From assembly GCA_965178125.1 (NCBI GenBank), contig OZ237737.1:496001-560000 (forward strand): DNA of 64,000 nt, given 5' to 3'. The translations under genes and the position numbers were made by a program. Of this stretch, positions 1 through 64,000 are shown one piece after another (within the stretch, counting starts at the first letter, position 1; each line of letters starts with the position of its first letter). The DNA is from Bilabrum cf. latius (Eukaryota). The notes beneath the pieces are model-generated. The model did no database searches and had not been told where the DNA came from. It was given only the letters and a program-made list of their open reading frames with translations.

Positions 1-1853
1 CACCTTCGTGCGATCTCCTTAGTGTCTAATGCCAGCTGCTCCTCAGATGACTTGCAAAGGCTGAGTCCCTGCTCCTTTGCGGAGCCAAGGGCAGCTACAT
101 GGTCCCCAGCGGCAGACTCGAGGAGCGGCAGCCATTCGTCCCCAAACAGCCTGGGGTCCTGCTCCTGCTCCTCCTCCTCCTCCTCCGTGACTTTCCCGTC
201 GCGACTAGCGCATGCCCGTGCGATGCATCCCAGCTCGGCCAGCTGCGAGCTGATGTCTTCGGTCTGCTCGTACGGGGCGGATTCCGTGGGGTGCAAGAAG
301 TGCATCCTCTGCAGCGCCGCCTGCTCCTCCCAGCACGGCCTGTTCGCCTCCTGGGTACGCATCATCTGAATGTACGCAAAAATGCACTCGATCACGCCCG
401 GCCATGCCATGGCGCCGGCCCTGCTGAGCCCAACGGACACTTCAAAGACGGAGTAGGCCGCGGTCTCTTCTGAGCCCGTGCCCGCAGACAACGAGGTCGC
501 CCAGCCCCTCCGTTGAAGCTCACGGAGCACAGAGCCCTCCCCTTCGTGGCCAAGGCAGTGCGACAAGTGCTGATCAGCAAAAGCGCGCCAGCAGCCCAAC
601 GTCGTGGGCATGCAGAATTCCAGCTGCAGCCAGTGCCTGTCAGACACCGGGCGCACGACGTTCATCACCGGCAGGGAATCCAGGCCCCACAGCGGCCCGG
701 CTCGCATCACTTCTTGCGACCAAGTGTACGGAGCAAGTGCAGGTGCCCCAGCCAAGGGGCCTGGCAAGGCAGCAGTTGAGGCAGCGCTCAGTTCCTCCCC
801 AGCCCCGGCGCCCGATGCTGGCTTGCCCTCCGTGTCGGTGGACCCAGCCGCTGCCGGGGCGCTTCCTACTTCCGGTCTGGCTGCGCCTGGATCTGCGTGC
901 AGCGCGGGAAGCGAGGGAGCAGCTTCATTGGACCCATCGCTCGGGGCCCTCTATGCCTCCCCTGGAGCAAGTGCTCGCTCGTTTTGCTCCTCTGCGTCCA
1001 TCAGGGCCCGCAGGTCAGGGACCTCGGGTATGCGGGCGAACCGCGGTGCCACGATTTCCTGCAGGCGATCAAGAGGAAGCGGAGCACGGACCACGAGGTG
1101 CATCCTGGACGAGTGGTAGTGCTCGGCGTAGAACCGCAGGAACGCTCGCCTTGGCTGGGCACCCGCTTGGCGAGGCCTCGTCCACAGGCTCCGCCAGTTG
1201 CCCCACTGGAACTTGGAGCCGGGGTGGCCTTCCCTGCCCGCCCGAAGGCTGATTTCACCTGCCCGGTTGTAATCGGACACGCTCGCGTTTGACCACTCCG
1301 AATCCACTGCCTGGAGCTCCCGCTCCGTCACGTCTGCTCGCCACAGCGGATGCTCAAAGATGGCGGACAGGCGGTCCAGCGCGCCCTCTAGGTGGGCAGG
1401 CGTGACGTCAAATGTGTAGCATGTATGGTTTGCGTACGTGGCTCCGTTGGAGCTGCCGCCGTGCTCACTCAGAAACGAGTCGTACGCGTTTTCTTCCGGG
1501 TACCGTCGAGACCCCATGAAGAGCAAGTGCTCGCAGGCATGCGCGCACCCGGGCATCCATTCCGGGTCTGAGAGAGAACCAACTGAGACTGCAAGCGCGA
1601 CCGCAGCCTGTTGGGACCCTTGCCCGTCTTCTTCGTCTGCATCGGCGCCCGCACCTGATCCACCTTCATCCTTGGAACCCGTGTCCTCCATGGCTGGAGT
1701 GTCTTCAATGAGTAGCGCACGCAATCCGTTGGTCAGCCGTATTACTCTGTACTGTTTCTTGTCTCCTGGACTTTTCATGGACCCAATTAAATCGAGACGG
1801 GACGCTACAGATTCAACCTCGACATCGTCGACAGAATCGCCCTTCGCTTCCAT
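1..1853 (-). CDS. M16A metallopeptidase (insulysin/nardilysin-like), 3'-truncated by the window edge; one in-frame TAG at 951-953
   Basis: KSPGDKKQYRVIRLTNGLRALLI, an acidic insertion and the inverted zinc motif HACEH. After the TAG the same frame gives LGHEGEGSVLRELQRRGWATSLSAG (M16A signature) and stays open to position 3. Confidence 0.9.
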
Positions 1854-2057
1854 TGAAACACGACTATACCACGACCTAGACGTTGCCAGGGGCTACTGTA
1901 TATATATAGGACCAAACAGATGCGAGATCGTATGCAATAATCCACAAGCCCGCGTGGAATTGAGCTCGCAAGAAGTTGCCAAACCATGCCGAAGCAGCGG
2001 AACTTGGATTGCGCGGCGCCATTCTAGTTCTCCTCAAGTTTGCTACTACGACGCAAG

Positions 2058-3755
2058 ATGTCGGTACTTTTGCGAGATATTGCTCAAGGGGATGAATTAG
2101 TAGATGCACATAGAAGCTCTGGCTTGGATCCAGAGTCTGCAGAGTCCCTCATGTTTGCAGATGGTACGAACGCGCGCGGTTCGAAAGCCTCGGGGCGCAG
2201 CAGAAAGGATGCCAAAGGCAAGAATCAGACTGAGGTGTCCAAAATGCGAGAATTAGATGATTCGTTGCTGACTGGGAGGTACGCAGGAGAGAAGGCATCG
2301 CTGAGTGATCTTCGGAAAGCAGGGGCGCTTCCTGAGGAGCAGCCTCAAATGGTCTCTGGCGCGACTGATGCTGCTTTGGATGCTTTAATGGGTGGCGATA
2401 GCGATGAAGAGAGTGATTCTAGCGATGAAGAGTCCAAGAAGGCAGCTAGACCCGTAGAAACCCGGTCTATAGCGGACTTGAGTAGCCAGTTGCAGTTGAC
2501 GTCAAGCTCGAGATCGAACGAGGAGAGCCGTGGCAAGGCAGCCAAGCTTCAGTTCGACCGAGCAGAATTGTGGTTGCAGAGTCGTGTGTACTTGCAGCCC
2601 GGATTGCGCGCAGCCAATAGGCTTCCGCGAACGGCAGGGCTTGGCATTGACGCAGACGAATGCCAGGAGGCATCGAAGCAGTGCTCCGATCGGGAGGCAC
2701 GAGCCCTCCAGGCGCTCCCGGGACAAGTGCAGGCGACGCAGCGCGAGCTGGCTGCAACCATCGCTGGGTTCATGGAACTCGCCCGGGCGAGCATCGTGGG
2801 CGGGGGAGCAAGTGCTTCGTACAAGGGAGCCTCCTCTCTGCCCATGGTGGGCGACCAGCTCGCCGGCCTCGACAACGAAAGCGACGATTCGGATGACGAT
2901 GATGAATCTGAGAATGATATCGATAGCGATAGTGACAGTAAAAGCGACAGCACAACAAGCAGCGAGGGCGGCTCTGCTGCTATCGACAGCAGCCGTCTGC
3001 CCGGCGAGTGCCTACTGCCGGGACGACGGCCCTGGACCGAACTCGAAGGATCGGAGCAAGGATCGGATCAGACTGCCGGACCGGAGCTTCCCTCCTCGTC
3101 GCAGATCGAGGAGGCCCTGGACGCCTGGTGGGAGGGTGTGCTGCCTTCGGTCGAGGCTGCCGTGGATGCAGCGTTCATGCGGACGAGCAGGAGGCATAGG
3201 TCAGCGGGAAGCTCGGCAGCGGCTGCCTCTGCGGACGGCTCCGCTCTGCTGAAGCCGCCCAGCCAGCAGGCTCTGGAAGTTGCGACCAACGAGCGGGCCA
3301 GGCTGAGGAGGGCCCACGCCAGGGAAGGAACGTTCGTTCCGCTGCTAGCCGAAGCTTGCGACCAGGAAGAAATGCCTGACCTGGGAGGGGCTGCCTCCAG
3401 CGGAACCTCCAGCGGCGCCACGCACGGGCTGGACCCTGGGACGTACGAGGACGGCGATTTCCTGCAGTACACGATGCGTGAGCTATCTTCTATGGGCAAG
3501 GCAGCCGAGCTTAGGAAAGCCACGGTGCGGGCAGGGAGCGCCACGGAGGAAGCGCAGGCCTACTTGAAGAGGATCCGCCCGTTTGCCCCGAAGCGACGGG
3601 AGGGCGTGGATGCTAGAGCGAGCAAGGGGAGGAGGATGCGGTACACGGTCATGCCCAAGCTAGTGGGGTTTGTTGCTGCCAAACCGGGGGCGGCCGGGCC
3701 GCCGCCAGTGGATGTGGACACGCTGCTGCGATCGGTGTTCAAATCGAATGCGTGA
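2058..3755 (+). CDS. AATF: AATF/Bfr2 (SSU processome) family protein
   Basis: Acidic N-terminal tracts; C-terminal TRAUB-like motif YEDGDFLQYTMREL...VDARASKGRRMRYTVMPKLVGFVA; ends TGA. Confidence 0.85.
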   Translation: MSVLLRDIAQGDELVDAHRSSGLDPESAESLMFADGTNARGSKASGRSRKDAKGKNQTEVSKMRELDDSLLTGRYAGEKASLSDLRKAGALPEEQPQMVSGATDAALDALMGGDSDEESDSSDEESKKAARPVETRSIADLSSQLQLTSSSRSNEESRGKAAKLQFDRAELWLQSRVYLQPGLRAANRLPRTAGLGIDADECQEASKQCSDREARALQALPGQVQATQRELAATIAGFMELARASIVGGGASASYKGASSLPMVGDQLAGLDNESDDSDDDDESENDIDSDSDSKSDSTTSSEGGSAAIDSSRLPGECLLPGRRPWTELEGSEQGSDQTAGPELPSSSQIEEALDAWWEGVLPSVEAAVDAAFMRTSRRHRSAGSSAAAASADGSALLKPPSQQALEVATNERARLRRAHAREGTFVPLLAEACDQEEMPDLGGAASSGTSSGATHGLDPGTYEDGDFLQYTMRELSSMGKAAELRKATVRAGSATEEAQAYLKRIRPFAPKRREGVDARASKGRRMRYTVMPKLVGFVAAKPGAAGPPPVDVDTLLRSVFKSNA

Positions 3756-3872: not shown

Positions 3873-6070
3873 ATGGCGAGAGTTTTCCGCGGGAGGATAC
3901 GCTCATTTGTGCGCCGGGCAGCGGGGCTCATTGCTGGCGCAGGCGCGGCACACTGGGTGTGTAGATGTAGCCGATCGTACCTCGACAGCGACAGAGACAG
4001 CGACGGAGGTTATTTGACCAGCCCAATCCAGTGAGAAGCCACATGATTTTATAAGAATATATCATTTCATAACCTCCCGTTGGCTAGGTGCCATGATGCT
4101 CGTCGATTCCACCGATAGCGCGCCTGGTGATGCGTACCAGATGTGTCTCGTGGGCAACTGTTCCTGGTGCATTCGAGCCCCAACTCCCAGCGTTCAGATC
4201 AGTCCACCCATGTTTTGCTCACAACAGATGCCGAGATGGAACCACGGTAGTACCTTGGTCAGCTCCATCAAGGGACAAGCAAATTGCTACTCTGAAGCGA
4301 CAGGGCTACGACGTGCTGGTCGTCGGAGGCGGGTGTGTAGGCGCCGGAGTCGCCCTGGAAAGCGCCACACGAGGCTTAAAGACGGCAATGATTGAAAGGG
4401 ACGATTTTGCAGCCGGCACAAGCAGCCGCAGCACGAAGCTGATCCACGGCGGAATCCGCTACTTGGAAAATGCAGTGTGGAAGCTTGATTTTGGCAGCCT
4501 GAAGCTCGTCGATGAAGCGCTCTCTGAGCGAATGCACTTGCTGCAAGCGGCCCCTTACATGGCACACGCATTGCCTATCATGATTCCGCTTTACAAGTGG
4601 TGGGAGCTCCCCTACATGATGGCGGGCGCCATGGTCTATGATTTTGTCGCCGGCTCGCGAAGGCATGTCCCCCGCTCGAGCATGCTTTCCAAAGACGAAG
4701 CCCTGTATAGATTTCCACAGCTGGATCCGGATGGCCTGAAGGGCGCCATCGTATACTACGACGGCATGCATAACGACGCTAGGATGAACCTCATGATCGC
4801 GCTCACCGCGGCGCAGGAAGGGGCCACCGTGGCGAACTATACTTCGTTGCAACGCCTAGTAAAGAGGGGAGAAGGCACCCCGGAAGAAGAAGAGATTCTC
4901 AAGGCGGCAGAGGCCGAGGCGAACTCGATCAAGCGCAAGAAGAGCCAGGCAGCCAAGGCAGATGCGCAGGGAGAGGGCGATGGAATCCTGGGAGCCCGAG
5001 AGGGCGAGATCATCGGGGCAGTGGTCAAGGATGAGATGGAGGGGAGGGAATTCGCCGTCAGGGCAAGACGGGTCGTCAACGCGACCGGGCCGTTCGCGGA
5101 CGCCGTCAGGAAGATGGCTGACCCTGAGGTGGATGAGGTCATCGTGCCGGCGGGAGGGGTCCACGTGATTCTTCCAGACCACATGTGCCCCGACAGGATG
5201 GGTCTGATCGTGCCAAAGACCAAGGACGGGAGGGTGCTCTTCTTCCTACCCTGGGAGGGACGCACACTGTGCGGCACCACGGACAGCACCACCGACCTGA
5301 CCATGCTGCCGCAGCCCACCGAGAAGGAGATCTCCTTCATCCTCGACGAGGCCAACAAATTCCTCAACACGAGGGTGTCCAGGCACGACGTCAAGTCGGC
5401 GTGGTCAGGGATCAGGCCCCTGGTGCGCGACCCGAACGCAGCGAAAGGAGACACCAAGAGCTTCAGCCGGAACCACGTGATCGAGCACTTCGAGTCCTCA
5501 GGGCTCGTGTCCACGATGGGCGGCAAGTGGACCACCTACCGAAGGATGGCACAGGACACTGTGGACAAGCTTAAGGGCGTGACACCCGAGTTTGAGGACA
5601 AGGTGGAGCCCTCCCGCACCCTGCACATGCAGTTCCTGGGCGCGGACAGGGCCGGCATCGTGGTCGGGCAGAAATTCGATCGCATCACCGTGACGCTGAG
5701 GGAGACGTACGACATGGACAAGGACGTTGCACAGCATCTTCTGAGGAATTACGGCACGCGGGCGCTGCAGGTGGCCGAGCTTGTCAAGCGGGACGAAGCG
5801 AAGGGCGGGAGCAAGCGCATGGGCAAGCGGCTCTCAAGAAAGATGCCGTTCATCCGGGCAGAGGTACACTTTGCCGTAGAGCAGGAGTACGCGCAGCGGG
5901 CCGTGGACGTGATCGCTAGGCGCACCCGCGTGTCGTTCCTGGATTATGCGGCGTGCACGGACGTGTGCGAGCAGGTGATTGAGATCATGGGGGAGAAGCT
6001 GGGGTGGACGTCTGCTCGGAAGCAGAAAGAGTTGGAGCTCTGCCAGGAGTTTATCTCAACAATGCAGTGA
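3873..6070 (+). CDS. GPD2: Mitochondrial FAD-dependent glycerol-3-phosphate dehydrogenase; putative intron 4031-4227
   Basis: DVLVVGGGCVGAGVALE, GTSSRSTKLIHGGIRYLE, YYDGMHNDARMN, GGKWTTYRRMA. An Arg-rich presequence-like exon from ATG 3873 joins in frame via GTGAGA...CTCACAACAG (an acceptor at 4140 is also in phase). Ends TGA. Confidence 0.93.
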
Positions 6071-6285: not shown

Positions 6286-9200
6286 TCACTGCAGGTCCAG
6301 GTCACTCACTGCCTTGATCTCACGGACCCCGTAGTCATTTCGATCCAATGAATTATCCAGAGCGTCGATGCTCAGGTCTCTTGTGTGGGCTCTCGCCGGC
6401 GTGCCACCGGTTTCGGGGCCTGGTGGGGACCCCACAGCGGTGCATGCCACCGCCGCTGCGACGGCATCCGCGGGTGTCCCGGCGCTCCCGTCCCCGTAGG
6501 ATCTCCCGCCAGTGGACCGAGCGGTGCTACCAGCAACTACGTGCGAGGGAACCCTGGACGAACCCGAAGAACCTTCCATGCCGTACGAGGAGGCGTCGGC
6601 CTCGGATGATTCCACGGTCCCTGGGGCATTGGACACGACGCTGCCGACCCGCATCAGGTCAGATTCCCTGCCCCCCAACCCACCCAGCCCCAGGGGCAAA
6701 TCACTTGTCCCCAGGTGGCTGCCCGTGCCCCCATGGAAACCAGGGGAGGCTGATCCACTCATGGATCCTACTTGTCTGGCAGCACGATGGCTGGCCGTGG
6801 CTGAGCTAGACCCTCCTGCCGCAGCGGTCGCCCCCCCGACGCCATGGGCCCTTGAGAACCCCTGCCCTTGCCCCTGCCCCTGCCCTTGTCCTTGCTGTGT
6901 CCCCACGTCCTGCAAAGAGGCCCGGCGGCTTGTTCCCTGGCTTCCCTTCACCTGCATGAGGGGCTGTGCCTTCGCCTGCCTCTGGATGGCATGCAGGCCA
7001 GGGAAGGACCCGTGGCCGCCTGCGCCGGCAGGGTGTCGGGACAGCGAGCCTCTGGCTGCTCGGTTGGCACTCTCGACTGGCCCTGGACGTGGCGCATTCG
7101 ATCCGTCTTCTTCGTCAAGTCTCGGAGATGATGCGATGCCGAAGGCCTCGGAGGAAGAAGCGCCTCCATGGGCACTCGACGACGGCGAAAGCATCACGCT
7201 CCCGGCGGGGGACTGATACGACAAGGAGGCTGCAGTCGGCAGCTGCAGCTAGCGACGACGAGGTGCGTCTGCGGAACCTCTGCCCAGCATGGCCAGGTCC
7301 GTGCCTACCCGATTCACCCCATTCGCGCCCTCATCCTCGTTCTCGTCTTCCGAATCAGACCCTAGCCCACCCTCCGAACCCGCTGGCGCACCAACTGGCG
7401 GTGAGCCCACAGACGTTCCTGAGACCGACTGCGGCTTATGCGCACCGATAGCGTGACCTATCCCCGTCGCGGCACCAGCCCCAAGCCCACCTCCAATCCC
7501 TGGACCAGGCAGAGGCATCTCCTCCTCCTTCACTGGATCGCTCTGCACGCGCCTATCCCTCCCCTTGCCGTTGCCCAGCTCCTCAACGTAGCGGACCCTG
7601 ACCTGGACCCTCGATCGCTGGGTGCTGACGCTGCGCTGCGGCTGGTGCTGGCCTGCAGAGACAGCGGCAGCTTGGGCGATACCACCGAGTCGCGAAGACG
7701 TGGTCATTGCTGTCGCTCTCACAGCGCTAGCCGAGGAGCTCTGCTGATGCGAGTCTCCGTGCAGCGAGGGCGGTGCTGACCTGTCCTTGCAGTGCATCTT
7801 CATGTGCTGTGGGGATGCCAGCGGATCTAACGGATCGTCAAGGATGCTGGCAGCGCTACTCGGATGGCTGACTCGGCCTGACACGCGCTGGTGCGAGTCG
7901 CGCTGTGCGTGCAGCACCCAGGGTCGCGATTTTGCCCGCAGCAGACCGGGCTGCTGCTGCTACTGTGCCTCAAAGTGAGACACCTGTCTGGCCGAGGAGC
8001 TGCGGACCAGGGGACTCACTGGACCGTCACCGCTCTCGTTCTCATCGGAAGCGGCCAGCTGCATGGGGGGCTGGTCAGGCACGCCGTCTGAGTTCAGGGG
8101 AGGAGCCCATGTGTTCCCCGCACCGGAGTTAGAGCCTGAGTTGCCTTCATTTCCACGCTGAGCAACGCCAGCGCGCTTCAGTCTGCCAGTTCCGGAGGGC
8201 ATGCGAGCCGAGGCAGAGCTTGCCGAGCTGCCCACAGCGAGACTGGCGGACTTGAACAGACCTGGCTGCCTGAGCGCATGGCTGCTGGGCGCTCTGGACG
8301 CTATGCCATGCGCGCCCAGCCCGAGAATACCCTGCATGGATCCTCCCACTGGTTGCGCGTCACCGCCGCCGTGCCCTGACGTGACACCCCTGGACCCTTG
8401 CTTCAGAGCAGCAAGTAGAGTGGGTGAGGCCAGGGCCTCGGGGACCGAGGAACTCTCCACGCCTGCTTTCCCTGCGGTGCTGCGGCTCTGCACGCTCACC
8501 GCTTTGATCGTTAAAGGTGCTCGTGTGCGCCTCCAGTTGCGGGTCGCGCCAAAGCTGCCGCCTGTGGGTGCAGCTGGTACAGGGACAGGGACAGGGACAG
8601 GGGTAGGAGTAGGGAAGGGGCCGGCGTCAAACCCAGACGAATTGTTCCCTGGGGCGTTTCTCAAGGTCCCATAATCATTTCTGTCTGCTGCTGTCGTCCA
8701 CGCCTGCCGGCTCTGTTCCCCAGGTCTGCGAGGGAGGGGCGTTTCCAGCACCCCGCTGGGGTCATCGTCACCCTCATCGTGCTCGTCCTCCCCGAGGCCA
8801 TCATGCGCGCCGCCATGCAGTGCATCCACGGGCCCCGTCACTCCGACGGCTCCCTCCTGCCAAGCCCTGCCTTCTCTAGAGCCGGCTCGCCGCTCGCCGT
8901 TCGGGGTAGACAGGTCCTCTGAGGCCCCCATCACCACCATGCCGCCCGCGGTGCCGTCCGTGTCCGTGGGGGTGGGGACGTTTCCCAGCCCGTTGCCGTG
9001 GGCGTGCGGCTTCAGGGGTCCGTCGGGATCGAGGCTCACGGCCGCATCGGATATAGGCTCCGGATCCGTGCCGATGACCACCACGGCTCCCCCTGCGCCG
9101 GGAATCGTCGCTGTCGTGGCAAGGGCACCTGCGGCGCGCATGGCCGCCGCCTCCTCCATATTTCTGATTGCGATTCTCTGGTTGACGAGATGCACTGCGA

Positions 9201-10410
9201 TGAAGATGACCCCGATGCCCAACACGCAGCCGATGAGGCCGACCACCCACGGATCGGCGCCCCAGAAGGCCTTGCCCTGACCATCGCCGGTCTTCCCGCG
9301 GCCGGTGGTGATGTTTCCGCTAATGGGGGAGGAGCTGGGGCTCGCGACAGGAGGTGCCGTGCTCGGTCGCTTGATGGCCGAGATCTGCATCCCCGCGACC
9401 TGCTCCGTTGAAACGAGCAGTCCGTTCTCCTGCATGGTTCTCGCCAGCTCGCCGCTCGCAAGCGCCTCTTGAATGGCACTTTCCTTCGCATCGATCCAGG
9501 AATCTGGTTTTCTGCCAGAGCCGTCCACGTTAGACGCCATCAGGCGCAGAAGGACCTGGCATCTGCCGGTCGTGACGATCGGCTGCACCGTCGATGATGA
9601 ACCGCTGTGCGGGGAGCGGCTCCCTTCTTCGGGTCCCTACCGCGCGCCAGATGTACTCATCTGCTCTCCATTACCAGAGCTATTTGATGATGGAGAAGGA
9701 GAGGGTGGCGGTGGTCGCGAAGTGCCGGGGGGTGGTGGCCTCGGCCTCGGCGGATTGCTGGCCTGCAGTTCTCGGCGTCCCGAGCGCAGACCAGGCTACA
9801 ACGTCCGAAGATGCATCACGAAAATTTCAATGGGAGACACGGTAGCTTTCGCAGCAAACGAGGCGACCAAAGCTTGCCCGTGCTCGCTTAGCTGCACTGG
9901 AGTGCCCGGGAACGTGGAGGCTCCCGGCGGCGGACCATCCACTCGCTCAATCCCCCGTCCGGCGACCAGTGTCACCGCACTGATATTTACCAGTGTTACA
10001 TTAAACTCTACAAAGCTTACTTTAGGCCACTAGATGTTGCTAGATGGCAGCGGTAAATCGCCACCTTCTTGCAAATACCTATTCTGCACTCCTGTCCGTC
10101 CCACTGTACGCCAGGTAGGTCTAATGATGTCCCGCGCACCTGTAGAGCTACCCGATGTAATATCGAGGCAATGCTCCGATTCAGAACTGTCCCGCGCATT
10201 GGCACTGGCATGGCCACAAGCGAACGGAGCGGTTACGATTCGCTTCGGGGCTGCGACTCGTCCGCGAAACGACGTTGATACCCCGACTACAGCATGAGCT
10301 GATAGTAACAAACTCATTATTGCACATAGCCGCATCATGCCTGAAGCTAAGCCGCCGGATTGGCTGGACGCCGCCCTCGAAGACAAGCCTACGCCCTCGT
10401 GGTGGTTCAT
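6286..10410 (-). CDS. Hypothetical type I membrane protein, ~1370 aa (signal peptide, single TM, long low-complexity tail); in-frame TAG at 10030, 9796, 9637, 7960, 7249
   Basis: Four listed ORFs share one frame and are separated only by TAG. Signal-like MRLCAIMSLLLSAHAVVG; TM WVVGLIGCVLGIGVIFIAVHLV; the TAG at 7960 lies in CAG TAG CAG CAG CAG. Ends TGA. Confidence 0.75.
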
Positions 10411-10679
10411 CGCAATGGCTACGGCAAAACCCAGCTATACCTCAAACCAATTCTGTGTATGAGACCCAATCCATGGATGTACACACTTTAGAATCGTCTG
10501 AGAGCCCTGTTTGTGGGTGATTGGACTTCGGTTTCGCGGAGTGTGCGGGCCTCCGTGGGGCGTGGCGCGTGCGACCATTTTGGTCGCAAGCGACCGCAAC
10601 GAAACAATTTCCAAGCAGCGTGACAGCAAACGAGCGATACATCTCCAGATTACGATACAATAATTGATTAAATGATAAA

Positions 10680-18634: not shown

Positions 18635-19068
18635 GCTTCCCGGGCGAAATCCCGGCAAGCCAGCGCGATGCTCGCCCCAACCCAAGTGTTGCACAAATTC
18701 CGCCGGCCGGCGAAGTGTCGCGGAACCTCCGGGTCGTGCGCGGCGCCAATTCCCGAATTTCGCTGCATCACCTGCAAATTGTGGCTGCGAAACTGCAGGC
18801 TCACTCCAAATTGTTTTGAAACGCACTTATTTTGGATCTCTTATACCGCGTACTACCTCCTGTAGCTGGGGCGGTATCAGCTAGCCTTCCGAGTAGGACT
18901 ACGTGCATTACAAGCAACACAATGTGGAACTGCGAAAGTGTCTGACTCGTTCTTCTGCAGTAGTCTGGCGGACGAGCTAATCTACCGCGTTCGCGTGTGG
19001 GGTGTGCAATCACGTCACTGCCATGGATGGAATCGACCCGAGACGTACACGATGTCCTTCCCCGGCAT

Positions 19069-45400: not shown

Positions 45401-46736
45401 GGCCGCTGAGGAGGAGCAGCAAGAGGCAGCCAGGCGCAAGGCCGCTGAGGAGGAGCAGCAAGAGGCAGCCAGGCGCAAGGCCGCTGAGGAGCAGCAGCAA
45501 GAGGCAGCCAGGCGCAAGGCCGCTGAGGAGGAGCAGCAAGAGGCAGCCAGGCGCAAGGCCGCTGAGGAGCAGCAGCAAGAGGCAGCCAGGCGCAAGGCCG
45601 CTGAGGAGCAGCAGCAAGAGGCAGCCAGGCGCAAGGCCGCTGAGGAGGAGCAGCAAGAGGCAGCCAGGCGCAAGGCCGCTGAGGAGGAGCAGCAAGAGGC
45701 AGCCAGGCGCAAGGCCGCTGAGGAGGAGCAGCAAGAGGCAGCCAGGCGCAAGGCCGCTGAGGAGGAGCAGCAAGAGGCAGCCAGGCGCAAGGCTGCTGAG
45801 GAGGAGCAGCAAGAGGCAGCCAGGCGCAAGGCTGCTGAGGAGGAGCAGCAAGAGGCAGCCAGGCGCAAGGCCGCTGAGGAGCAGCAGCAAGAGGCAGCCA
45901 GGCGCAAGGCCGCTGAGGAAGAGCAGCAAGAGGCAGCCAGGCGCAAGGCCGCTGAGGAGGAGCAGCAAGAGGCAGCCAGGCGCAAGGCCGCTGAGGAGGA
46001 GCAGCAAGAGGCAGCCAGGCGCAAGGCTGCTGAGGAGGAGCAGCAAGAGGCAGCCAGGCGCAAGGCCGCTGAGGAGCAGCAGCAAGAGGCAGCCAGGCGC
46101 AAGGCCGCTGAGGAGGAGCAGCAAGAGGCAGCCAGGCGCAAGGCCGCTGAGGAGGAGCAGCAAGAGGCAGCCAGGCGCAAGGCCGCTGAGGAGCAGCAGC
46201 AAGAGGCAGCCAGGCGCAAGGCCGCTGAGGAGGAGCAGCAAGAGGCAGCCAGGCGCAAGGCCGCTGAGGAGCAGCAGCAAGAGGCAGCCAGGCGCAAGGC
46301 CGCTGAGGAGCAGCAGCAAGAGGCAGCCAGGCGCAAGGCCGCTGAGGAGGAGCAGCAAGAGGCAGCCAGGCGCAAGGCCGCTGAGGAGGAGCAGCAAGAG
46401 GCAGCCAGGCGCAAGGCCGCTGAGGAGGAGCAGCAAGAGGCAGCCAGGCGCAAGGCCGCTGAGGAAGAGCAGCAAGAGGCAGCCAGGCGCAAGGCCGCTG
46501 AGGAGGAGCAGCAAGAGGCAGCCAGGCGCAAGGCCGCTGAGGAGGAGGAAGATGGCGATGACGTCCTAGGCTCTGGGGCTGCAGCCGCAGCGTTAGACGC
46601 CTAGAGGATGCGATCCACCAAGGACAGTTCCAAGAGCCGTCCGCGACGCCGTGCGCCAGCCGCACATGGTCGGGACTGGTCTCAGTCGTCCAATGGTGGG
46701 GGGAGCAGCCCTGGTGGATTCTGTACTATCTCGTGA
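36478..46736 (+). CDS. Giant ankyrin-repeat protein, copy A (~3190 aa): two internal modules, long charged helical repeat, C-terminal CaaX (CTIS); introns 36829-36939, 38371-38468, 39651-39762, 41245-41392, 42635-42762, 44014-44108
   Basis: Ankyrin motifs GRSLVHTAIAAG, DKDGDTPMQLALKAG, GETPLHAAVRAGRVQAVAELLRRGA. Six phase-0 GT-AG introns join all pieces in frame once about 18 TAGs are read through. Ends GGFCTIS-TGA. Confidence 0.78.
45231..46550 (+). repeat. 39-bp coding minisatellite, ~34 copies (EAARRKAAEEEQQ)
   Basis: gaggcagccaggcgcaaggccgctgaggaggagcagcaa in tandem; one unit is 36 bp. Confidence 0.95.
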
Positions 46737-47313
46737 GATTGGTGATCCCACTGGGCCACGGCCCTTTATCACGTGTGCTGAAGCTTCAATAAGGCTAGTA
46801 TCCATTGGTTGATCCGATAGTTATGGTTGTGGCTCTGTCCGTCCAGGGAGCGCATTCCACGCTTAGCCCAACTAGAGGGCTATCAGAATTTCCAGACCCC
46901 TCAGGGGGTAGGCACAGGGACTGAGCCTTCTAAGCCAGAACAGTGACGCAGGGGTAGATCTAGACGTCTACCACCTTTTTGAGGCGAAACCCTGTGCCTC
47001 CAATCGGACACCAGTTCGTAGGCCAACCTGGACGCTGGGATGCACTCAGCCGGTGGTGTATGGGCCTGTCAAGGCTGAAACCACCCACACAACACCGATT
47101 CGAAACGGACAGGGTCATGCTGCCCGTTCTGTTCAAACCCTAAAGAAACCGGTGGGGTAGCAGGCCAATGTAGCGTTCACATACAATTTTAATCACACTC
47201 AATCCTGCGGCGTACCTACGCACGCAATCAAAAGTCACGCATACTCTGCCGACTCTCCGCACAAATTGGAAATAGCTCAGGAATCTATTTGAAGCTTGAG
47301 CCTTTGATCCAGA

Positions 47314-53300: not shown

Positions 53301-56300
53301 TGCAATCCACAGCAAGATAAGGACCCGGTTTATGCACAACTAGCCGACACGGCTCTTCTGGTCGCTCTAGTTAGTACATCACCCCCTTAGGAAAGCGCTA
53401 CCAGTGCCCTTGAAGCAGTTGCGCAGGGATAGGCCAGCAGCCCAGGTCTAAGTGAGGCACAGAATAATGTTATCAGCTGGGCGAAGCGTCTCTGCATGCG
53501 GGATAGTGTAAGATAGGATTAGCCTCGGAGTTCAGGCACAGCGCTATGCGTTGCTGTTTGGACGGGGTGCCGCGCATTACTTTACCTTGTGCGAGTGTGT
53601 GTACGTATGCTGCATTTTATCTGTCCCGCAGGATGGCTGCTCCGCTTTGGGTTACGTTGTAGGCGAGGCAGGTGGTCAAGGTAATGCGAATTCAGCTATC
53701 GACTTGCTTGTAGCGTTGGGTTGCTGCGTATCAAGCACGCAGGTATACCATCGCGGTGAAACGTTCAGCGCAATCGAGGCCGTAACAGCCTCGCATGAAA
53801 CACGCAGTTGCTACCCAACTCGTGCTAGTTTTGTGCAGACAGCCCGAGAGAGCCTTGAAGCGAACAGTGATCCACTTGCCAGTGGGTCAAGTGCTGCTGG
53901 TGCTGCGGGAGATGCCAGCCCGATGAATTTAGCCTCTGTAGAGAAGCCCACGTGGCTCAACTTCTGTACTAGCTTGGCAGTAGATAATGTTGTTCACCGT
54001 GCCATCGCCGTGGCCGCTGGCTGGCACCGCTACCCAGACGGTGAACCAGAGGCGAGGTCCGCTGAAGTTACGAAGATGGCCGCCAGGGCCTTCGAAGAGA
54101 GTGAGGCTCCAACAGCTGTTCGATTAAAGGTAGCTCAAGCTGCCTGGCTGCTGGGAAGCTTGATGCCGGACCAGATCCACTTCAGTGTGTCCAAGGATTG
54201 TAACTCGCTGCTGTGGAGTGCCAAAGGGCCGGATGATGGAGCTGCTGGCAGCTCCGGCGCCCTCGAAGTTGACAAAGAATGCCTGCACGCCCTACCTGAG
54301 GTGGTACAAACGCTGTGCGGTGGTCGGCCTGCCCTACCACAGGCAGACTAGGCTACTGACCCAAAGCAGCGTCCTTGCACTTTGCTGCGAAGTGAAATTG
54401 CTGAAAATCTACTGGCTCCGATCCGAAACGGTGAGATGTAGGCGAACGAAGACGACCACTATCAAATGTAGGCCCTAAAGTATCTGTGTTCCATGAAGCT
54501 GTTGTCGACACACGTTGAGCGTCCTGTCGGAGTGGTCGAGAATATTACGAAAACAGTTGACTCTTCAGCCGGACGCGAATTACGTTCGCAAGTTGGCAAG
54601 ATGTTAGCAGCCGGAGAGACTCTACTTCACGATGCATGGGTACGTGTGAAGGCACCTACCGTTGACCACGCAGCGGTGAGCGCCGGTGCCCGTGCCGCTG
54701 CAAGTGGTTCTGCATCTAACCCAGATGCTGAAATTGCCGTTCCCCCAGTCTGCGCCCTCATGCTTCAAAGCGGTGCTGATGGCTCAGAATTCCCTGACCT
54801 CGCTAGCATTGTACTTTTGTTGTACGGCGCAAGCCCGGTCTAGGGGTCCGAGGTAAGTCGAGTTTCGCACTCATGTTAACATTTATTTCTCTACTTTGCA
54901 GAGCTTACACTAAATGCACAATATTATTTCACATATTTCGCAGGATAGCACTTGTACGCCCCTCTCTGTGCTCGTGCAGTAGATTCGCGCTGGATCTATA
55001 GATCGAAGAATGCGTACGGAGCCGCATCTCCGCAGTTCACTCCTTGCGGCACTTGCTGATGCGGCTTGGACCCAGGGCCAGAAGGACCCTGCCGTGTGGA
55101 CTGCGTGGACACAGGCCGTGATGCAGCAGCTGAAGCTGTGCACGTAGCACACCAAGGGCGACGAGCTGGTAGTTGAGCTGCTGCTGGACTACTCTGGCAT
55201 CCTGGAGGGTCCGCTGATGCTGCTGCATCAGGCTGGCAGCGGGATCCAGGATGAGCCAGCCAGCGGGGCAGGTGCCAGCGCTGGTGCTGGAGGTGGTGTA
55301 GCTGCTGATGTGGAGGCCCTTGTTGCATCCAGCGCTATGCTGCTTCAGGATGTGTTTGTGTGGGCATGCTCGAGCAAGAGCGTGTCGGGGCAGGTGCTGA
55401 GCAGCTTGCTGGAGCGCGGGTGCAGCCCCACAGCGCCGGGCAGCAGTGGAGAGACCCCTCTGCGTGCAGCCGTGCGGGCTGGTCGGCTTGCGGCCGTGAT
55501 CGAGTTGCTGAAGCGCGGCGTGAAGCTCAGTAGGCTGCACGTAGCAAGTTATATTGCAGCCGATGGCAGGCTTCCCAAAGTTGCCGATGTTTTGGAAAGG
55601 GTGACCCTTGAGGAGGAGACCACTGCAGAAGCGCAGCTATCAGCAATTAGGGCTGAGCTCGAGGCCGAGATAGATGCTGAGACACCCAAGCTAGGGGTAA
55701 TTGACGAATACGACTGGCCTGCAGCGTGGAATGCAGGGCGCGCGGACTTTGTGACTGTTTTGTCCATGGCCGACATGAAAACGTGGCGAGACAAGGCAGT
55801 CAAGAGCCTCTAGGAGTCTGGCGAGCTTGCTGAGAAGCAGTTCCAGGATTCAGGCGAGTGGAAACTGCTCTGTGTGAGGCGAGGCGTTTTGCTTCGCGCC
55901 GCATCGAATGTGTGGGGGCAGCCCGAGCTGTGGAAGACAGATGGTGCGGATGCGTCTTCCCTGATCCATGCTATCGAGCATGCGACTGGAAGCATACAGG
56001 CACATCTTGGGCATCTAGCTGAAAGTGCAGCGGCGTCAGAGGCGAAGGCTGTAGAGGAGGAGGCAGAGGCAGCCAGGCGCAAGGCCGCTGAGGAGGAGGC
56101 AGAGGCAGCCAGGCGCAAGGCCGCTGAGGAGGAGGCAGAGGCAGCCAGGCGCAAGGCCGCTGAGGAGGAGGCAGAGGCAGCCAGGCGCAAGGCCGCTGAG
56201 GAGGAGGCAGAGGCAGCCAGGCGCAAGGCCGCTGAGGAGGAGGCAGAGGCAGCCAGGCGCAAGGCCGCTGATGAGGAGGAAGATGGCGATGACGTCCTAG

Positions 56301-56467
56301 GCTCTGGGGCTGTGGCCGTAGCGTCAGACGCCTAGAGGATGCGATACACCAAGGATAGTTCCAAGAGCCGTCCACGACCCCGTGGGCCAGCCGCACATGG
56401 TCGGGACTAGTCTCAGTCGTCCAATGGTGGGGGGAGCAGCTCTGGTGGATTCTGTACTATCTCGTGA
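47314..56467 (+). CDS. Giant ankyrin-repeat protein, copy B (~2800 aa), tandem paralog of copy A; introns 47665-47775, 49207-49304, 50487-50598, 52081-52229, 53508-53631, 54853-54943
   Basis: Same exon structure and the same CTIS-TGA end. The 5' half is nearly identical to copy A at an offset of 10836 bp. Confidence 0.78.
56066..56281 (+). repeat. 36-bp coding minisatellite, 6 copies (EAARRKAAEEEA)
   Basis: gaggcagccaggcgcaaggccgctgaggaggaggca in tandem. Confidence 0.95.
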
Positions 56468-58012: not shown

Positions 58013-60682
58013 TCACAACACCTCAAGCCCTCTGCCCCCGTCAGGGCACAGCTCCGAGACGGTCACGCCTGCCAGCCCCCTTGATCCGCAGATCACGTCA
58101 AGCGCGCGGTCCACAGAGGCCACCACGTCGTGGTCGTAGCTCGGCCTCTCGAACCCAGGCACGTGCGAGAGGCTGAAGACGAGGTCGGCGGGCAGCTGGG
58201 CGTGCAGCTTGACGATGCCGCCGCGAAGGTCGCCCTGGTGCGAGAGGCGCTCACGCACGCGAGCGGGCCCTTTGGTGTCGTGGTCCCAGGGGCAGTGCGA
58301 CCACAGGCACACGGACATACCTGCGGCGTTCGCGGCGCGCAGGACTGACACGTTGCGGGTGCCGCTCTGCGGCCTGAACCAACGCACAGTGGTCTGGCGG
58401 AACGGCTCGGGTACTAGCTCCAGACGGAAGTGCAGCGTGCTGTAGAGCAGAGCGGCGAGGCTGACGTCCACGTCGTCATCGTCGCTGTCATCCCCATCCT
58501 CGTCCTCTTCGTCCTCCTTCTTGCCGCCTGACCCGCGTGCCCTGCTGCCTGCTCTGCGCCTCGCCTTGGGCTTCTCCTCCTCCTCCTCGGCCTGCTGCTC
58601 CATCGCCTCCATCTCCATCTCCGCCGCGTCCATATCCTCAAACTCGCCGGGGATAGTCTGAAGGGCCCTCTCTAGAGTCTCCTTGGCCTCTCGCATGGCG
58701 CCCTCGGTGTCCAGGCGGCCAGACGACGTGCCAGAGGGGCCCAGAAGCCCGATCTCGTGGCCAGCAGCAGCCACCAGCCTCACCAGCTGCGGCACCGCGC
58801 GGGCATCTCCCGCGGACACGAAGAAGGTGGCCCGGGCGCCCTTGTCCGCGAGCGTGGAGAGCACCTGGGCGAGCGTGGCCTCGTCGATCCCCTCGATGGT
58901 CAGGGCGGCGCAGTCGGTGTGCACGGAGCCGTGGGTGCTCACCTCGGCGAACATGGGCGCCAGCATGCGGTGTACACGGTTGGCACTGTGGCGGAGCGCC
59001 GAGGCGGCGCCGAAGATCAGAGTGGCGAGCACCGCTGCCACCAGGGGCTCGTCCACGGAGGCGCCCTTGTTGGCGAGCATGCGGGCAGGGGAGTACAGCG
59101 CGATGAGGGCGCCAACCTGCGCCTTGCCCGGTACGAGGTTCCACAGGGGCTGCAGGAAGGACAGGCCGTAGGTGATCCACTCCACGGCCTGGGTGACGTA
59201 AGGTCCCACGGCGTCGGTGACTGGCTTGAGTGCCGAGTAGTCGGCAGGGGGGTTCTCCTTGAGCTGCTGCTGCCCGAACACGATGGCGAAATAGCACACC
59301 GCGATCATTACCACCAGAATCGTAAAGTCCGCCGTGCCCATGCGCACGCTGGACGACATGCGGATGGTGGAAGTCTCGATGAAGCGCACGAAGGCGAGAC
59401 ACACCGACATGGCGGCGGCGTATCCGACGGCGAACGCGAACAGACGGGTGTGCATCGAGCCGTCGCCGCCAGTGGTCTGCGCCGCGTGCACGGCCACCAG
59501 CCCAAACGACAGGGTCACGAGCACAGCCGAGTTCCGCTGGAGCGGGGAGAAGGGCCCGTACACCGCGGGTTTGGTGCGGAGGAAGGGCCAGTGGCTCGCC
59601 AAGTCAACTGCGAGAACTGCCGTGGCGGCAAGGGCGAGAGCTACGGATCCGGAGCCGGAACTTCCGAAGAGGGTGGCGCCCTCTGCGCCCGTGATCCACT
59701 GGAACGCGTCGGTAGGGCCCGGCAGGACGGCGATGGTCTCGGTCACGACCGACAGGCCGACCGCCCCGGCCAGCACGTACCACCACACGGGGATGTTCCC
59801 GGTCTCAGGGTACCTGGGGGGCCCTGCGACCAGTAGCGCGATGGGCAGGGACATGGCCAGCGCCACGATCTGCGGGGATAGCTCGATCCCGGCGTATGCG
59901 TAGGCGAAGAGGAGGCTCCCTCCGATGACGCCGAGCACGGCGAACTGAGGCGTGAACGTCTCGGCGAGCCCTGCGAGATAGGCGGCGGCATAAGGTTGAT
60001 ATGGATGATCGTGCAACCAAATACTGAAAGCTTCTGGCGTGCGAGATGGGAACTGGCTGAGGTAATTGCAGTGACACGCAAGTGATCTCCGCCAAGCACA
60101 CCGCTGACTAGCTCGCTCACACTTGACAGACACGCCATAGGCTGCGGCGAAAAAGGCAAGAATCACCGGGATAATCCTAAGGCTTGACGCCTCGAAGCCC
60201 TTGCCACCGATCACGTCAGGCTGTGTCGCAACGAGGACGATTCCAACTGCCACCGCCACCACGGTCGCAGAATACCGATGCCAAATCAGGGAGGCGCACA
60301 AAGTGCCAGCTCCAATCACGGCAGACAGAAGAAGCTCTTTGTTGATCTTGCTGGCAGAGACGTGCATGGCCACGTACACGAGGACACCCACAGTTGCCAC
60401 AACCGAGGTGAGGAAACACAGCGGAAGCATGATCGAAGTCAACTTCCTGCTGCCAGTCACGCCAGCAAATGCCACAAATGCGGCGCTGATGCTCTGCGTT
60501 GGAGACAGGAGGCCCTTGGGAGATACGAAGACATTCGATCGTGTTGCGTGAGATTCGAAGTGCAACTGCAACGAGACGCGAAGATCCCTGAGGCAGCACG
60601 TGCAGATGAGCCCAAGCTAGTCAGAACTTACAAAAAGAAAGAGTATTCCAGCATAACTCGTCTCATCTAAAGTAAAATTCAT
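58013..60682 (-). CDS. Multi-pass membrane protein with C-terminal NodB/polysaccharide deacetylase (CE4)-like domain, probably inactive; intron about 60494-60631, possible second in-frame intron near 60030-60120
   Basis: Many hydrophobic helices, then AALTIEGI, ARATFFVS, AAGHEIGLLG, RWFRPQSG, GGIVKLH. First exon MNFTLDETSYAGILFLF|GTAAGT. Ends TGA. Confidence 0.75.
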
Positions 60683-60921: not shown

Positions 60922-62658
60922 TCACAGCGACAGCACCGCCATGGACGTCGTGACGGATCCAACACCGTCTTCTTCGTCGCTTGAGGGCAGGTCCTCGCCG
61001 ACCCCATCCTTCACCTCGATCCCAGCCTGCCTTTTCCTCTCTCGCTCTGCCGCCGCTCGTTTCCTCAGCTCGGCTTTCCTTTCTTTGTTGCTTAGACCCT
61101 CCAGGCTGGCATCCCCCCCAGCCTCCATCGCTTTTCTCTTCTTCCTGGCCGCCTTCATCAAACGCTTCGCCTCCTTGCGCCTACGCTTCTCTTCCTTCTT
61201 CTGCTAGGCAAGCGCAGCCGCAGATACCAAAGAGGCTGCCTTGCCAGACCCAGCAGCTGCATCCCCATCAGCAGCAGCAGCAGCAGCAGCAGCATCATCA
61301 CCAGGGCTTGAGATGGACCCACACGCCGCACCTGCCCGCGCTGTTCCGGTGGAGCTGCCAGCGCCAACAGGCGGCGGACACCCACCGGAAGGCAACATCG
61401 GGGGAACATTTCCCGACGTTGCAACCGCGTCTTCCTCCAGGGCTCCACCGAGGCCCAGGCCGCCCTCTCCCCAGCCGTCCGTGAGCAACGAGCCGCCGCC
61501 TGCACCGCTTGCACCCGCAGAGGCTGGGACTGTCTCGAATTCGCCTGCCCCCGCTTTGGAAAGTGCAGGCTTCGCTGCTGCAGCACCACCCACCGCTGCT
61601 GCTTCGCCATCGCCAGCCCCGTGGACTCCTTCCATGTCCCCCCAGGCTTCTCGCTTGCTCTCCTGCTGCGCGATCAGGATCTCCAGAGCGGCGTCAACGT
61701 CACCCTCCACGGATGCCAGCGTTGATCTGACGTCCCCCAGCGTCATTCCAACGGTGCTGCGGAGCAGAAGCTCCTCCTCACTCGTCACACCTCCATTGGC
61801 GCCGCCCATCGCTGCCCCCTTGTCCCTGCCCCAGTCCGCCCCGGCACCTCCCCCCATGTCCAGTCGGTCCCCTGCACCAGCACCAGCACCAGCACCAGCA
61901 CCAGCACCAGCACCAGCACCAGCACCAGCACCAGCACCAGCACCAGCAATGAGCCTCTTTGCCTCCGGCGCGCCTTCCCAAACCGCGCCTTTAGCCGTCA
62001 TGACGAATGGAGTGGCGGGGGCTTTCGCGTCGTCCCCTAGCATCCTGATGGAATCGTAGTGCTCTCCGTTGCGATACACGAGGTTGATCGTCTTCTTGTA
62101 ACCCGGCGACTTGAACTCCCACCGGGGCTGGTCCAGCTGGTGCACCACGATGTTCATCTTGAGGTGATCATGAATTGCCATGATTTCTAGCTGCCCCACC
62201 CATTCGCCTTGCTTGGCGATGTTGGCCGTGTACTCCTCAAAAGTACCGTCCTCCTCCTCGCTTATGAAAAACTGGTACCCATCCTTGTTTGCCTGCAGGC
62301 GCGCCACGCAAGCAGCACGAAGCTCGACGTGATGGGCTTCAGTCCCATGCAACTAGTCTGACACGGCTCGAAACATGCAATTCCCATCTGCAGCAACTTC
62401 TCGCACTTGCAAGTTGGCCTTCCGAAGCTCTACAGCCAGCTTTCTGCTATCCGCTGCCCACTTCGCCTTGTCCTACCTAGCCCTTTCTCGCTGCATTCTG
62501 CGCCTATCTCTCTTCTCCTGTTTCTTTTCTTGGGCACGCTTCTGGTGCTGCAATCGACGTTCCTCCTTGCGGGTCTTTGCCTTGCCTGCACCCGATCCGC
62601 CTGCCGCAGACTTAGCACTTGTCCCCTTTCCTGTCTTCTTTCCCTTCTTCTTCGGCAT
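60922..62658 (-). CDS. OTU-domain deubiquitinase (OTUD3-like) with UBA/CUE-like domain; in-frame TAG at 62473, 62353, 61204
   Basis: VREVAADGNCMFRAVSD[TAG]LHG, GEWVGQLEIMA, NLVYRNGEHYDSIR; UBA-like VRSTLASVEGDVDAALEILIA; basic termini; ends TGA. Confidence 0.92.
61874..61948. repeat. (GCACCA)n hexanucleotide repeat encoding (Gly-Ala)n in the OTU gene
   Basis: About 12 tandem copies seen directly. Confidence 0.9.
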
Positions 62659-62799
62659 TAAACAACGACAATTATTTCAGAGGGAGGAAATCTGGGCTTT
62701 GCTCCATCGTTCTTGCTCGTGGCATAGAACGTTCGTTTAGAGTAGCGAACCTCGGCTGAAATCCATCGCCACGAGTCGGGAATCGCCATTTCCTTCGCA

Positions 62800-64000
62800 A
62801 TGCCTAGGGTATACATTCACATTTAGGCTGGAAACAATGATCATGTCATAGCTGTTCCTAATGTTCGCGACACTGACACGTGCGAGTCGTTGGCAAAGGT
62901 GAGAGACTGATCGTTGTATGATGAGCCACGTGGGCTGTAAACATCGAGATTATGGAAGATGTCCGCTACAAACGAGTGTAATTACTACCTTTTGCAGGCA
63001 TTCGTGGAGTCTCCCGGGTTTCGCCGCCGATTCAAAGCAATTCGCCCAGCCGCAATTCGATTTCGAGTGTGCGGCAAGCCAGAAGGGGGCCTGCTCCCCC
63101 AAGTAGCTTCAGTAGGAAACGCGCTGCGGTCAGACTTAACTCCAGCGACTCCTGGCTACGCAGACGCTGTTGCTGTGATCGTGAAGTTGCCAGAGTCTGC
63201 AGGTGAGCCGGAATCTTAGGTAGCCGAAGCCGCCAGAGTGGCTGTCAAGCACGAGGGCGCTGGGAAGCGCGAACGTCCTGCTGCTAGGCACGTTGGTGCA
63301 TCTAGTGGAGCCGGCTCCGACGATATCCTAGCGGATACCAAGTCCGTCGGAGGCAGCGAGGCCGAGGACGAGCCCGCGGCAGCGGACTGGAGGAGCGCCT
63401 GCCTGCAGGCAGAGCTTGGCCTTCGAGGGGGGGTCTACAGGCAGGCCATCCAGGCCATCAAGCAGGCGGTGGAAGCATACCCGGGAGGTGCAGCAGGGGC
63501 CCCAACGGAGGCTAGGGTGGCTCTTCTCCGGTGCAGAGCGTGGGTGCAGATGAAGGTGGGGAGACCCGCGAGGGCAGTGAAGCTGCTGCGCCAAGCAGTA
63601 TCGCTGTCTAAGAAAGACCCGTCGCTTGCGTGCGAATTCGGAGAGAGCCTGCTGTAGACTGGAGACAGCAAGGCCGCAGTGTCTGCATTTGACGGCGCCG
63701 CGGTGGAGCTCCGCAAGATGGAGACTAGGCTGGCTGCTAGCCCCTCGGCAGCTGCCGCGGCCCAGGGCAAGTCAACGGCTCTAATCGGCGCCCACGCTGC
63801 GTACAAGCTGGCCATGGGCAAGGGAGGCCGCTTTACCCTGTGCAACGGCCCCGGGGGGCTGTGCACCACGCCCTTCCCGGGCGTATACTGCAGCACGGAC
63901 GCTTTACTCGGTTGTGCGAGAGCTCTGTGGAAAGGCGGCAACTTGGCGGGCGGGGTCCAGGTCATCAACGCGATCGTGGAGACGGGTGCAGGTGACGAGC
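62800..64000 (+). CDS. TPR-like protein, 3'-truncated; intron 62899-62997; in-frame TAG at 62824, 63217, 63655
   Basis: Phase-0 GTGAGA...TTTTGCAG intron; helical TPR-like segments YRQAIQAIKQAVEAYP, RAVKLLRQAVSLSKKDP, FGESLL[TAG]TGDSKAAVSAF; frame open to the window end. Confidence 0.65.

Follow-up and report, generated by a model that had tools for sequence, protein, structure and literature searches.

Analysis of a 64-kb stretch of DNA (contig OZ237737.1, positions 496,001 to 560,000; called the window below, in whose coordinates all positions are given) indicates that UAG is translated as a sense codon in the nuclear genome from which it comes. Very probably UAG specifies Gln and UAA and UGA remain stops, which is the set of codon meanings in NCBI translation table 15, and table 15 translates the window genes without internal stops. 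A first-pass annotation, made from the letters of the window, had proposed that UAG is most likely Gln and that UAA and UGA are stops. This proposal is supported by open reading frame (ORF) statistics, by contigs from public sequencing runs, by a deoxynucleoside kinase (dNK) gene, and by two related sequences: the EDRF1 fragments of a close relative and a metagenome contig designated L001.

The effect of reading TAG as sense is most readily seen in ORF lengths. With TAG as sense, the window contains four stop-to-stop ORFs of at least 1000 codons (2306, 1578, 1397, and 1075), and the longest such ORF under the standard code has 867 codons. Reading through TAA leaves the longest ORF at 867 codons and reading through TGA brings it to 920, with neither giving any ORF of at least 1000. 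Over the six frames TGA is the commonest stop triplet (1654), followed by TAG (922) and TAA (367). When the stop labels were shuffled 1000 times over all stop positions, the 2306-codon maximum obtained with TAG was reached in none of the shuffles, the longest of which gave 1546; for TAA (867) and TGA (920), the maxima found in the window were reached in 1000 and 983 of them, respectively. The TAG pattern exceeds chance. TGA or TAA as a sense codon was rejected, given the lack of gain in ORF length and the ease with which shuffles reach the observed values.

To count codons, 23 ORF models were defined, each extended from a selected Met up to the first TAA or TGA that follows, with the near-identical duplicates A2, B2, and C2 left out. 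In their 16,303 codons, 93 TAGs stand in frame, as against zero for TAA and zero for TGA; since TAA and TGA were used to set the ORF limits, the two zeros are in part circular, and the gene starts are inferred. The two sense-strand off-frames of the same models, summed, contain 244 TAG, 100 TAA, and 641 TGA. With one of the 93 TAGs lying in an intron (36904) and ten more found in the duplicates, the earlier estimate of roughly 100 in-frame TAGs and no internal TAA or TGA is borne out. At least one TAG is present in 19 of the 23 models. Counted per gene, with the ankyrin ORF blocks merged into three of the four ankyrin genes, about 13 of 17 genes have one, so that the original figure of 13 of 18 gene models was about right. 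The TAG-free genes are AATF (with a conservative start), G3PDH, and MIF4G, together with G5 when read from its first ATG. Pfam domain matches run across or beyond TAGs in Sec62, dNK, OTU, EDRF1_N, and M16_C, and for these five the annotation was correct that conserved domains continue past the codon. Pyrrolysine- or selenocysteine-like recoding was rejected: TAG occurs 5.7 times per 1000 codons and interchanges with Gln codons, which amounts to ordinary codon use. The TAG-containing genes considered first are the following.

27567..34001, minus strand: EDRF1-like gene of 2145 codons with its Met at 34001, 25 in-frame TAGs, and a TAA stop at 27564-27566 (Pfam EDRF1_N, E 2.1e-30).
32526-32528 (r653), 31620-31622 (r955), 28299-28301 (r2062), and 28917-28919 (r1856), minus strand: informative TAGs of the EDRF1-like gene.
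31227-31229, 30201-30203, 28500-28502, and 28224-28226, minus strand: TAGs of the EDRF1-like gene that are kept in a close relative.
22240..23634, plus strand: dNK gene with TAGs at 22351-22353, 22522-22524, and 22783-22785 and a TGA stop at 23632-23634; the Pfam dNK match (E 1.4e-47) falls in two stretches flanking the three TAGs.
34166..35611, plus strand: Sec62 gene with TAG at codons 4, 31, 47, and 166; the Sec62 membrane domain (Pfam Sec62) comes after these, and the stop is TGA.
60922..62658, minus strand: OTU deubiquitinase-like gene with three in-frame TAGs and a TGA stop (Pfam OTU, E 5.7e-19).

Contigs of four public runs from four studies, X1, X5, X6, and X8, were placed on window positions 19000-38999. 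Over 19000-36304 the contigs of all four runs are identical to the window letter for letter, and the DNA run X1 provides one contig that is colinear with this whole interval without differences. The contigs of X5 and X6, which belong to two studies other than that of X1, break at intergenic gaps (19000-22122, 22243-23631, 23812-27420, 27426-34044, and 34159-35933), have a gene-wise depth, and skip four GT..AG segments (21565-21700 on the minus strand, 24149-24239, 36828-36938, and 38371-38468). Based on these joints and breaks, we infer that X5 and X6 are cDNA-derived, although their RNA type is a guess: they are labelled only "RNA?", X5 is also given as "probably DNA", and no run is recorded as RNA. 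Of the 39 in-frame TAGs in the covered gene models, the four introns take out a single one (36904). Among the RNA-like contigs are two for dNK (22243-23631 and 22237-23563, with 0 differences) and two for Sec62 (34159-35933 and 34181-36234), and the X5/X6 contigs span dNK, EDRF1, and Sec62 with 0 differing letters. Since they carry the TAGs unchanged, the codons would be present in mRNA, neither edited nor spliced out. The first-pass annotation had pointed to CAG or TGG at these sites in mRNA as a finding that would speak against it; what the RNA-like contigs have in dNK, EDRF1, and Sec62 is TAG.

The coding frame of the EDRF1-like gene contains 25 TAG, 0 TAA, and 0 TGA, and the other five frames contain 15-25 TAG, 5-11 TAA, and 19-48 TGA. 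Because the coding sequence nearly fills its transcript contig (27426-34044, 6619 nt, with no joint and 0 differences), the absence of TAA and TGA is less circular in this case. Its conventional Gln codons are 42 CAA and 59 CAG, as compared with 25 TAG and 0 TAA in frame. Among shorter proteins, the EDRF1 search found nothing beyond two fragments from a close relative, and no wide set of orthologues emerged; the representative search returned seven. Four ORF fragments of the relative's EDRF1 (P0121, P0122, P0203, and P0204; 86-94% identity) each terminate exactly at a window TAG, namely at r1995, r1086, r1428, and r2087. A standard-code gene caller has evidently split the relative's gene at conserved TAG codons. 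Three window TAG sites that are not conserved in the close relative align with Q, Q, and E, and the more distant fragments P0200 and P0201 terminate where the window has Q. The sequence L001, a contig of 2182 nt and 59% GC from a JGI metagenome, encodes the orthologous protein. One of its frames is open from end to end and contains 10 TAG and 0 TAA/TGA, and the other two frames contain 31 and 11 TAA/TGA. Judging from these sequences, the UAG-sense code is shared by the close relative (86-94%) and the L001 lineage.

These observations contradict the idea that the TAGs are a product of artefact or decay, whether through assembly error, pseudogenes, UAG-to-CAG RNA editing, or introns hiding the TAGs. 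The intronic TAG at 36904 is what can be said for it. On the other hand, four runs from four studies reproduce the window exactly over 19000-36304, the RNA-like contigs retain the TAGs and have no more than four short introns, decay would also have yielded TAA and TGA, of which 16,303 codons contain none, and both the close relative and L001 display the same pattern. We therefore regard this explanation as vanishingly improbable.

The codons that serve as stops were examined at the gene ends. There are 17 visible ends, of which 15 are TGA and 2 are TAA when the TAAs at the ends of ORF blocks A4 and B4 are treated as intronic. The earlier tally was 13 TGA and 3 TAA among 16 ends. The accompanying statement that genes never end at TAG is true, but by construction, and provides no independent test. 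For one TAA, an mRNA end can be brought to bear.

24240..27249, plus strand: second exon of a His/Asp-rich gene, preceded by the GT..AG intron 24149-24239, with two in-frame TAGs, ending at TAA 27247-27249.

The contigs of this gene end at 27420 (X5) and 27427 (X6), 171-178 nt past the TAA, whereas 404 codons would have to be read to reach the following TGA in frame; the TAA at 27247-27249 thus terminates translation. If UAA were also Gln, the CAA to CAG usage in the ORF models (179/497) predicts about 30 in-frame TAA beside the 93 TAG, and 0 were seen. A code in which UAA and UAG (together, UAR) both mean Gln (NCBI table 6) was rejected for this reason.

UAG might still be ambiguous, meaning Gln within genes and acting as a terminator in some contexts. 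Context-dependent codes of this type occur in Condylostoma and karyorelict ciliates and, for UAA, in Blastocrithidia. The ORFs were read through TAG by construction, so that a TAG could be the true stop of some gene, and several genes, C4 among them, have a TAG about 20-60 codons before the closing TGA or TAA. However, 0 of the 17 visible ends require a TAG stop, and the dNK tail reaches the same last residues before TGA in the relative's fragment P0124. In addition, the number of in-frame TAGs in EDRF1 (25) equals the off-frame counts (15-25), giving no sign of counter-selection, and UAA and UGA are both on hand as stops. Nothing in this small sample of 64 kb and 17 ends gives a positive sign of an ambiguous UAG, which we consider unlikely.

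The identity of the amino acid was addressed using alignments. Comparison of the window with L001 gave 19 columns with a TAG on either side. Where the local identity is at least 0.75, all four columns pair TAG with a Gln codon, and they do so in both directions: a window TAG faces CAG at r653 and r955, and a window CAA faces TAG at r904 and r952. The CAA-TAG pairs need two base changes, which fits an exchange of synonymous codons. At a local identity of at least 0.58, Q was found in five of seven columns. In dNK, the column of TAG-105 contains Q in the first 7 aligned homologues (of 77 aligned; in E-value order but for one fragment) and in human dCK (PDB). The OTU TAG at 62353-62355 (TAG-108) lies within the motif DGNCMFRAVSD-TAG-L, and PDB sequences place Q in its column for OTUD3 and OTUD5, T for OTUD1, and, for two viral OTUs, F and L. 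No TAG column fell within the aligned part of the PDB alignments to Sec62, where PDB Sec62 matches residues 218-305; the table 15 translation of this gene is open to its TGA. When BLOSUM62 scores were summed over 13 columns, Q ranked first (18.6), ahead of R (11.5), E (7.3), and K (7.0), and in the 7 better columns the sums were 12.6 for Q, 7.3 for E, and 2.5 for K. Within three residues of a TAG, Q is enriched 1.8-fold, as compared with 2.1-fold around Q itself, and E is at 1.0-fold. TAGs also lie inside the Q-rich tracts of two low-complexity proteins.

14374..18075, minus strand: low-complexity gene G6, 1233 codons from its first ATG, with eight TAGs, six of them in Q-rich tracts (15109, 15073, 14911, 14899, 14872, and 14854), and a TGA stop.
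6286..10578, minus strand: low-complexity gene G4, 1430 codons, with six TAGs, one of them inside a Q run (7960-7962), and a TGA stop.

The alignments thus display a preference for Q at TAG, both in the best L001 columns (4/4) and in the BLOSUM sums, where the first-pass annotation had warned that there might be no amino-acid preference at all.

Several observations nevertheless weigh against a code with UAG as Gln. The ORF counts and the nature of the X5/X6 runs have the limits given above. In EDRF1, the close relative has E, and a distant one L, opposite the TAG at r1856. The three L001 columns with a local identity of 0.58-0.62 contain Q, A, and R, and among the poorly aligned L001 columns Q appears in 1 of 12, the others having mixed residues or a gap. 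Two further TAGs of dNK, TAG-48 and TAG-192, fall in variable columns, in which the commonest residues are P (18/77) and K (37/77) and Q is found in 4/77 and 6/77. Of the 30 TAG columns among the ankyrin paralogues described below, 4 contain Q and the remainder are mixed, the closest pair having K, L, and W. Finally, ARAGORN found no tRNA gene in the 64-kb window, and eRF1 is not among the window genes either.

Some of these points would fit a UAG that is sense and specifies another amino acid (Glu, Lys, Arg, Leu, or Tyr), or a mixture arising by near-cognate decoding. The E opposite r1856, the A and R opposite two moderately aligned L001 TAGs, the K, L, W, and E opposite TAG in close ankyrin paralogues, and the second and third places of R and E in the BLOSUM sum can all be read in this way. 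Yet the best-aligned L001 columns are Gln in four of four cases, two of them as CAA-TAG pairs separated by two base changes, Q occupies dNK-105 and OTU-108, TAGs lie within Q runs, and E is not enriched near TAG. The comparison of ankyrin paralogues is not decisive for the identity of the amino acid. Another amino acid or a mixture is in our view quite improbable. TAG as Gln is the best reading of the sequence comparisons, well supported but not proven.

As a Gln codon, TAG would make up 12% of the total (93/769, with 497 CAG and 179 CAA). Its frequency is 7.3 per 1000 codons in ORFs whose GC content at third codon positions (GC3) is below 0.70, and 1.0 per 1000 in those with GC3 of at least 0.70; the GC3-rich genes with few TAGs are taken to be highly expressed. 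If TAG is Gln, then it would behave as a minor synonymous codon of an old and settled reassignment.

In the mechanism we envisage, a tRNA-Gln with the anticodon CUA, derived from tRNA-Gln(CUG), would decode UAG, and an eRF1 with an altered N-domain would no longer recognise UAG while still reading UAA and UGA. It is modelled on other lineages in which UAG or UAR means Gln; the UAR = Gln codes are presumed to have arisen via a mutated tRNA-Gln.

The window has the gene content of a eukaryotic nucleus. Its Pfam matches include M16 peptidase, AATF/TRAUB, G3PDH, MIF4G, dNK, EDRF1-like, Sec62, OTU, TPR, four ankyrin-repeat paralogues, and a polysaccharide-deacetylase membrane protein. The GC content ranges from 57 to 65% and is about 60% overall. 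A phage, plasmid, or prokaryotic source was ruled out by the gene content and the spliceosomal GT..AG introns. The gene used as a taxonomic marker is the following.

4130..6070, plus strand: mitochondrial-type glycerol-3-phosphate dehydrogenase (G3PDH) gene with no TAG and a TGA stop (Pfam DAO and DAO_C).

The top match of G3PDH is Cafeteria roenbergensis (60% identity), followed by oomycetes and other stramenopiles. A maximum-likelihood tree of 24 rows places the window as sister to Cafeteria plus P0002 with support of 100/99, which agrees with the earlier remark that this is not a typical AT-rich ciliate. Placement is by this one gene, and on G3PDH alone a Cafeteria-related stramenopile (Bigyra) is likely but not secure. 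Other searches added little: the Rfam scan of the 64-kb window found no family, hence no rRNA, the ESM Atlas search with the MIF4G protein gave family-level matches only, none of them helpful for taxonomy, and the PDB search with the TPR protein gave no match. The best explanation is that the window is nuclear DNA of a compact, intron-poor, GC-rich (about 60%) heterotrophic stramenopile. Genes in the window are tightly packed. At the convergent His-rich and EDRF1 genes, 6 nt separate the ends of the two RNA-like contigs (27420-27426), and at the divergent EDRF1 and Sec62 genes 114 nt lie between the contig starts (34044-34159). The four runs placed on 19000-38999 are filed under four organism names in four studies, one of them with a depth of only about 2, which could mean that the organism accompanies other cultures or that it has been deposited under more than one name.

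The remaining genes include a large ankyrin array and three others.

36478..56467, plus strand: four paralogous ankyrin-repeat genes (Pfam Ank, self-BLAST), each with three ORF blocks and several in-frame TAGs; all four last blocks close with TGA.
3..1853, minus strand: gene of an M16 (insulinase-type) peptidase, truncated at the window start, with one in-frame TAG and M16_C beyond it (Pfam Peptidase_M16 and M16_C).
58013..60682, minus strand: polysaccharide deacetylase-domain membrane protein gene with one in-frame TAG near the N-terminus and a TGA stop.
19069..21519, minus strand: MIF4G-domain gene (GC3 of 0.84) that contains no TAG and stops at TGA, with a 136-nt intron upstream of it (21565-21700).

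The ankyrin ORF blocks lie in different frames and are linked by short introns, with joints observed at 36828-36938 and 38371-38468. The first of these introns is 111 nt long, a multiple of three, and has no in-frame TAA or TGA and one in-frame TAG, that at 36904. Since it is in phase and lacks TAA and TGA, its retention would leave the ORF open under a UAG-sense code. Within the array (36.3-56.5 kb), the segments 36307-42112 and 47141-52949 are 98.5% identical over 5811 nt and represent a recent tandem duplication. A coding tandem repeat at 45219-46547 (39-nt unit, 34.2 copies, 97% match) gives an EAARRKAAEE(E/Q)QQ repeat in one ankyrin gene, and a paralogue of that gene has a repeat with a 36-nt unit (6.8 copies) at 56040-56283.

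Two of the TAG-containing genes described above have additional features. The dNK protein has a low-complexity C-terminal extension of about 165 residues (23164-23631), which is kept to the same last residues in the relative's fragment P0124. The X5 contig for this gene stops at 23631, the base adjoining the TGA (23632-23634), and a T/G-rich stretch comes next. This end may be due to chance; it resembles the situation in Blastocystis, in which stop codons are completed by polyadenylation. Upstream of the first ATG of G6 (18075), a Cys-rich stretch (C..C......C......C) is encoded on the minus strand at about 18.3-18.45 kb, at the N-terminus of the stop-to-stop ORF 14377-18567. We take it to resemble the fungal-type Zn2Cys6 DNA-binding motif, and a Pfam search with this ORF gave no match at E <=0.001 for the stretch. 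The stretch may be coding, with a start that is non-ATG or spliced, or else noncoding.

The code variant itself is already known elsewhere, and what is new is its occurrence in a lineage for which no report was found. Nuclear reassignments of UAG alone that are named in a published account (PMC11687900) include those of an uncultured rhizarian (Leu), Iotanema spirale (Gln), Scotinosphaera (Ser), Protocruzia tuzeti (Gln), and phyllopharyngean ciliates (Leu once, Gln twice). UAR = Gln codes are listed there for many ciliates, ulvophycean green algae, Hexamita, Streblomastix, and Amoeboaphelidium (PMC11687900). Among these, the fornicate Iotanema spirale is described as reading UAG as Gln while UAA, uncoupled from it, remains a stop beside UGA, as in the window (PMC11687900); it is a member of Metamonada, an unrelated supergroup, whereas the window is stramenopile by G3PDH and about 60% GC. 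Protocruzia tuzeti and two phyllopharyngean lineages are given the same codon meanings as the window (PMC11687900), but they are ciliates (Alveolata), a group known for code changes. The rhizarian and Scotinosphaera split UAG from UAA in the same way according to this source, with a different amino acid (Leu and Ser) (PMC11687900); L and S score far below Q here. In the UAR = Gln codes (table 6) a stop has been captured by Gln, as in the window, where UAA nonetheless stays a stop (0 TAA versus 93 TAG, and one TAA confirmed by an mRNA end). Phages with TAG as Gln, termed "code 15", have also been described (PMC9523058). They share the codon meaning, and the window instead has eukaryotic nuclear genes (Sec62, MIF4G, EDRF1, and AATF) and spliceosomal GT..AG introns.

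No report of a nuclear code change in a stramenopile was found in the open-access full-text literature; subscription journals are mostly outside its reach, so one may exist. A preprint on Vipsania that came up in this search deals with ciliates alone. Because the organism is not a ciliate and the UAG-only cases given in PMC11687900 are those of the rhizarian, Iotanema, Scotinosphaera, Protocruzia, and the phyllopharyngeans, an independent origin of the reassignment is the natural reading, on a single-gene tree and the open-access literature search. We lean toward the view that this is the first nuclear code change in stramenopiles: an independent and old capture of UAG by Gln in a free-living, GC-rich, Cafeteria-related clade, spanning at least three sequence-distinct lineages (the window, the relative at 86-94% identity, and L001), in which TAG positions are conserved and UAA has escaped despite the usual coupling.

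A code of this kind has consequences for how the clade is annotated. Standard-code gene callers shatter such genes, and in the protein database the relative's EDRF1 is present only as TAG-ended fragments. Unless table 15 is applied, the annotations, BUSCO scores, and phylogenomic matrices of the clade will be wrong. DNA of the window is present in several public runs, two of which also contain apparent transcripts, so that tests of the tRNA, of eRF1, and of the proteome are within easy reach. Departures from the standard nuclear code are few, and those of UAG without UAA are fewer still, a handful that are mostly ciliates by the cases collected in PMC11687900. If the view set out here is true, the organism would offer a tractable and possibly culturable non-ciliate system for learning how eRF1 loses UAG alone. 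A further origin in a GC-rich stramenopile would also bear on the coupling of UAA and UAG and on whether low GC is needed for the capture of a stop codon.

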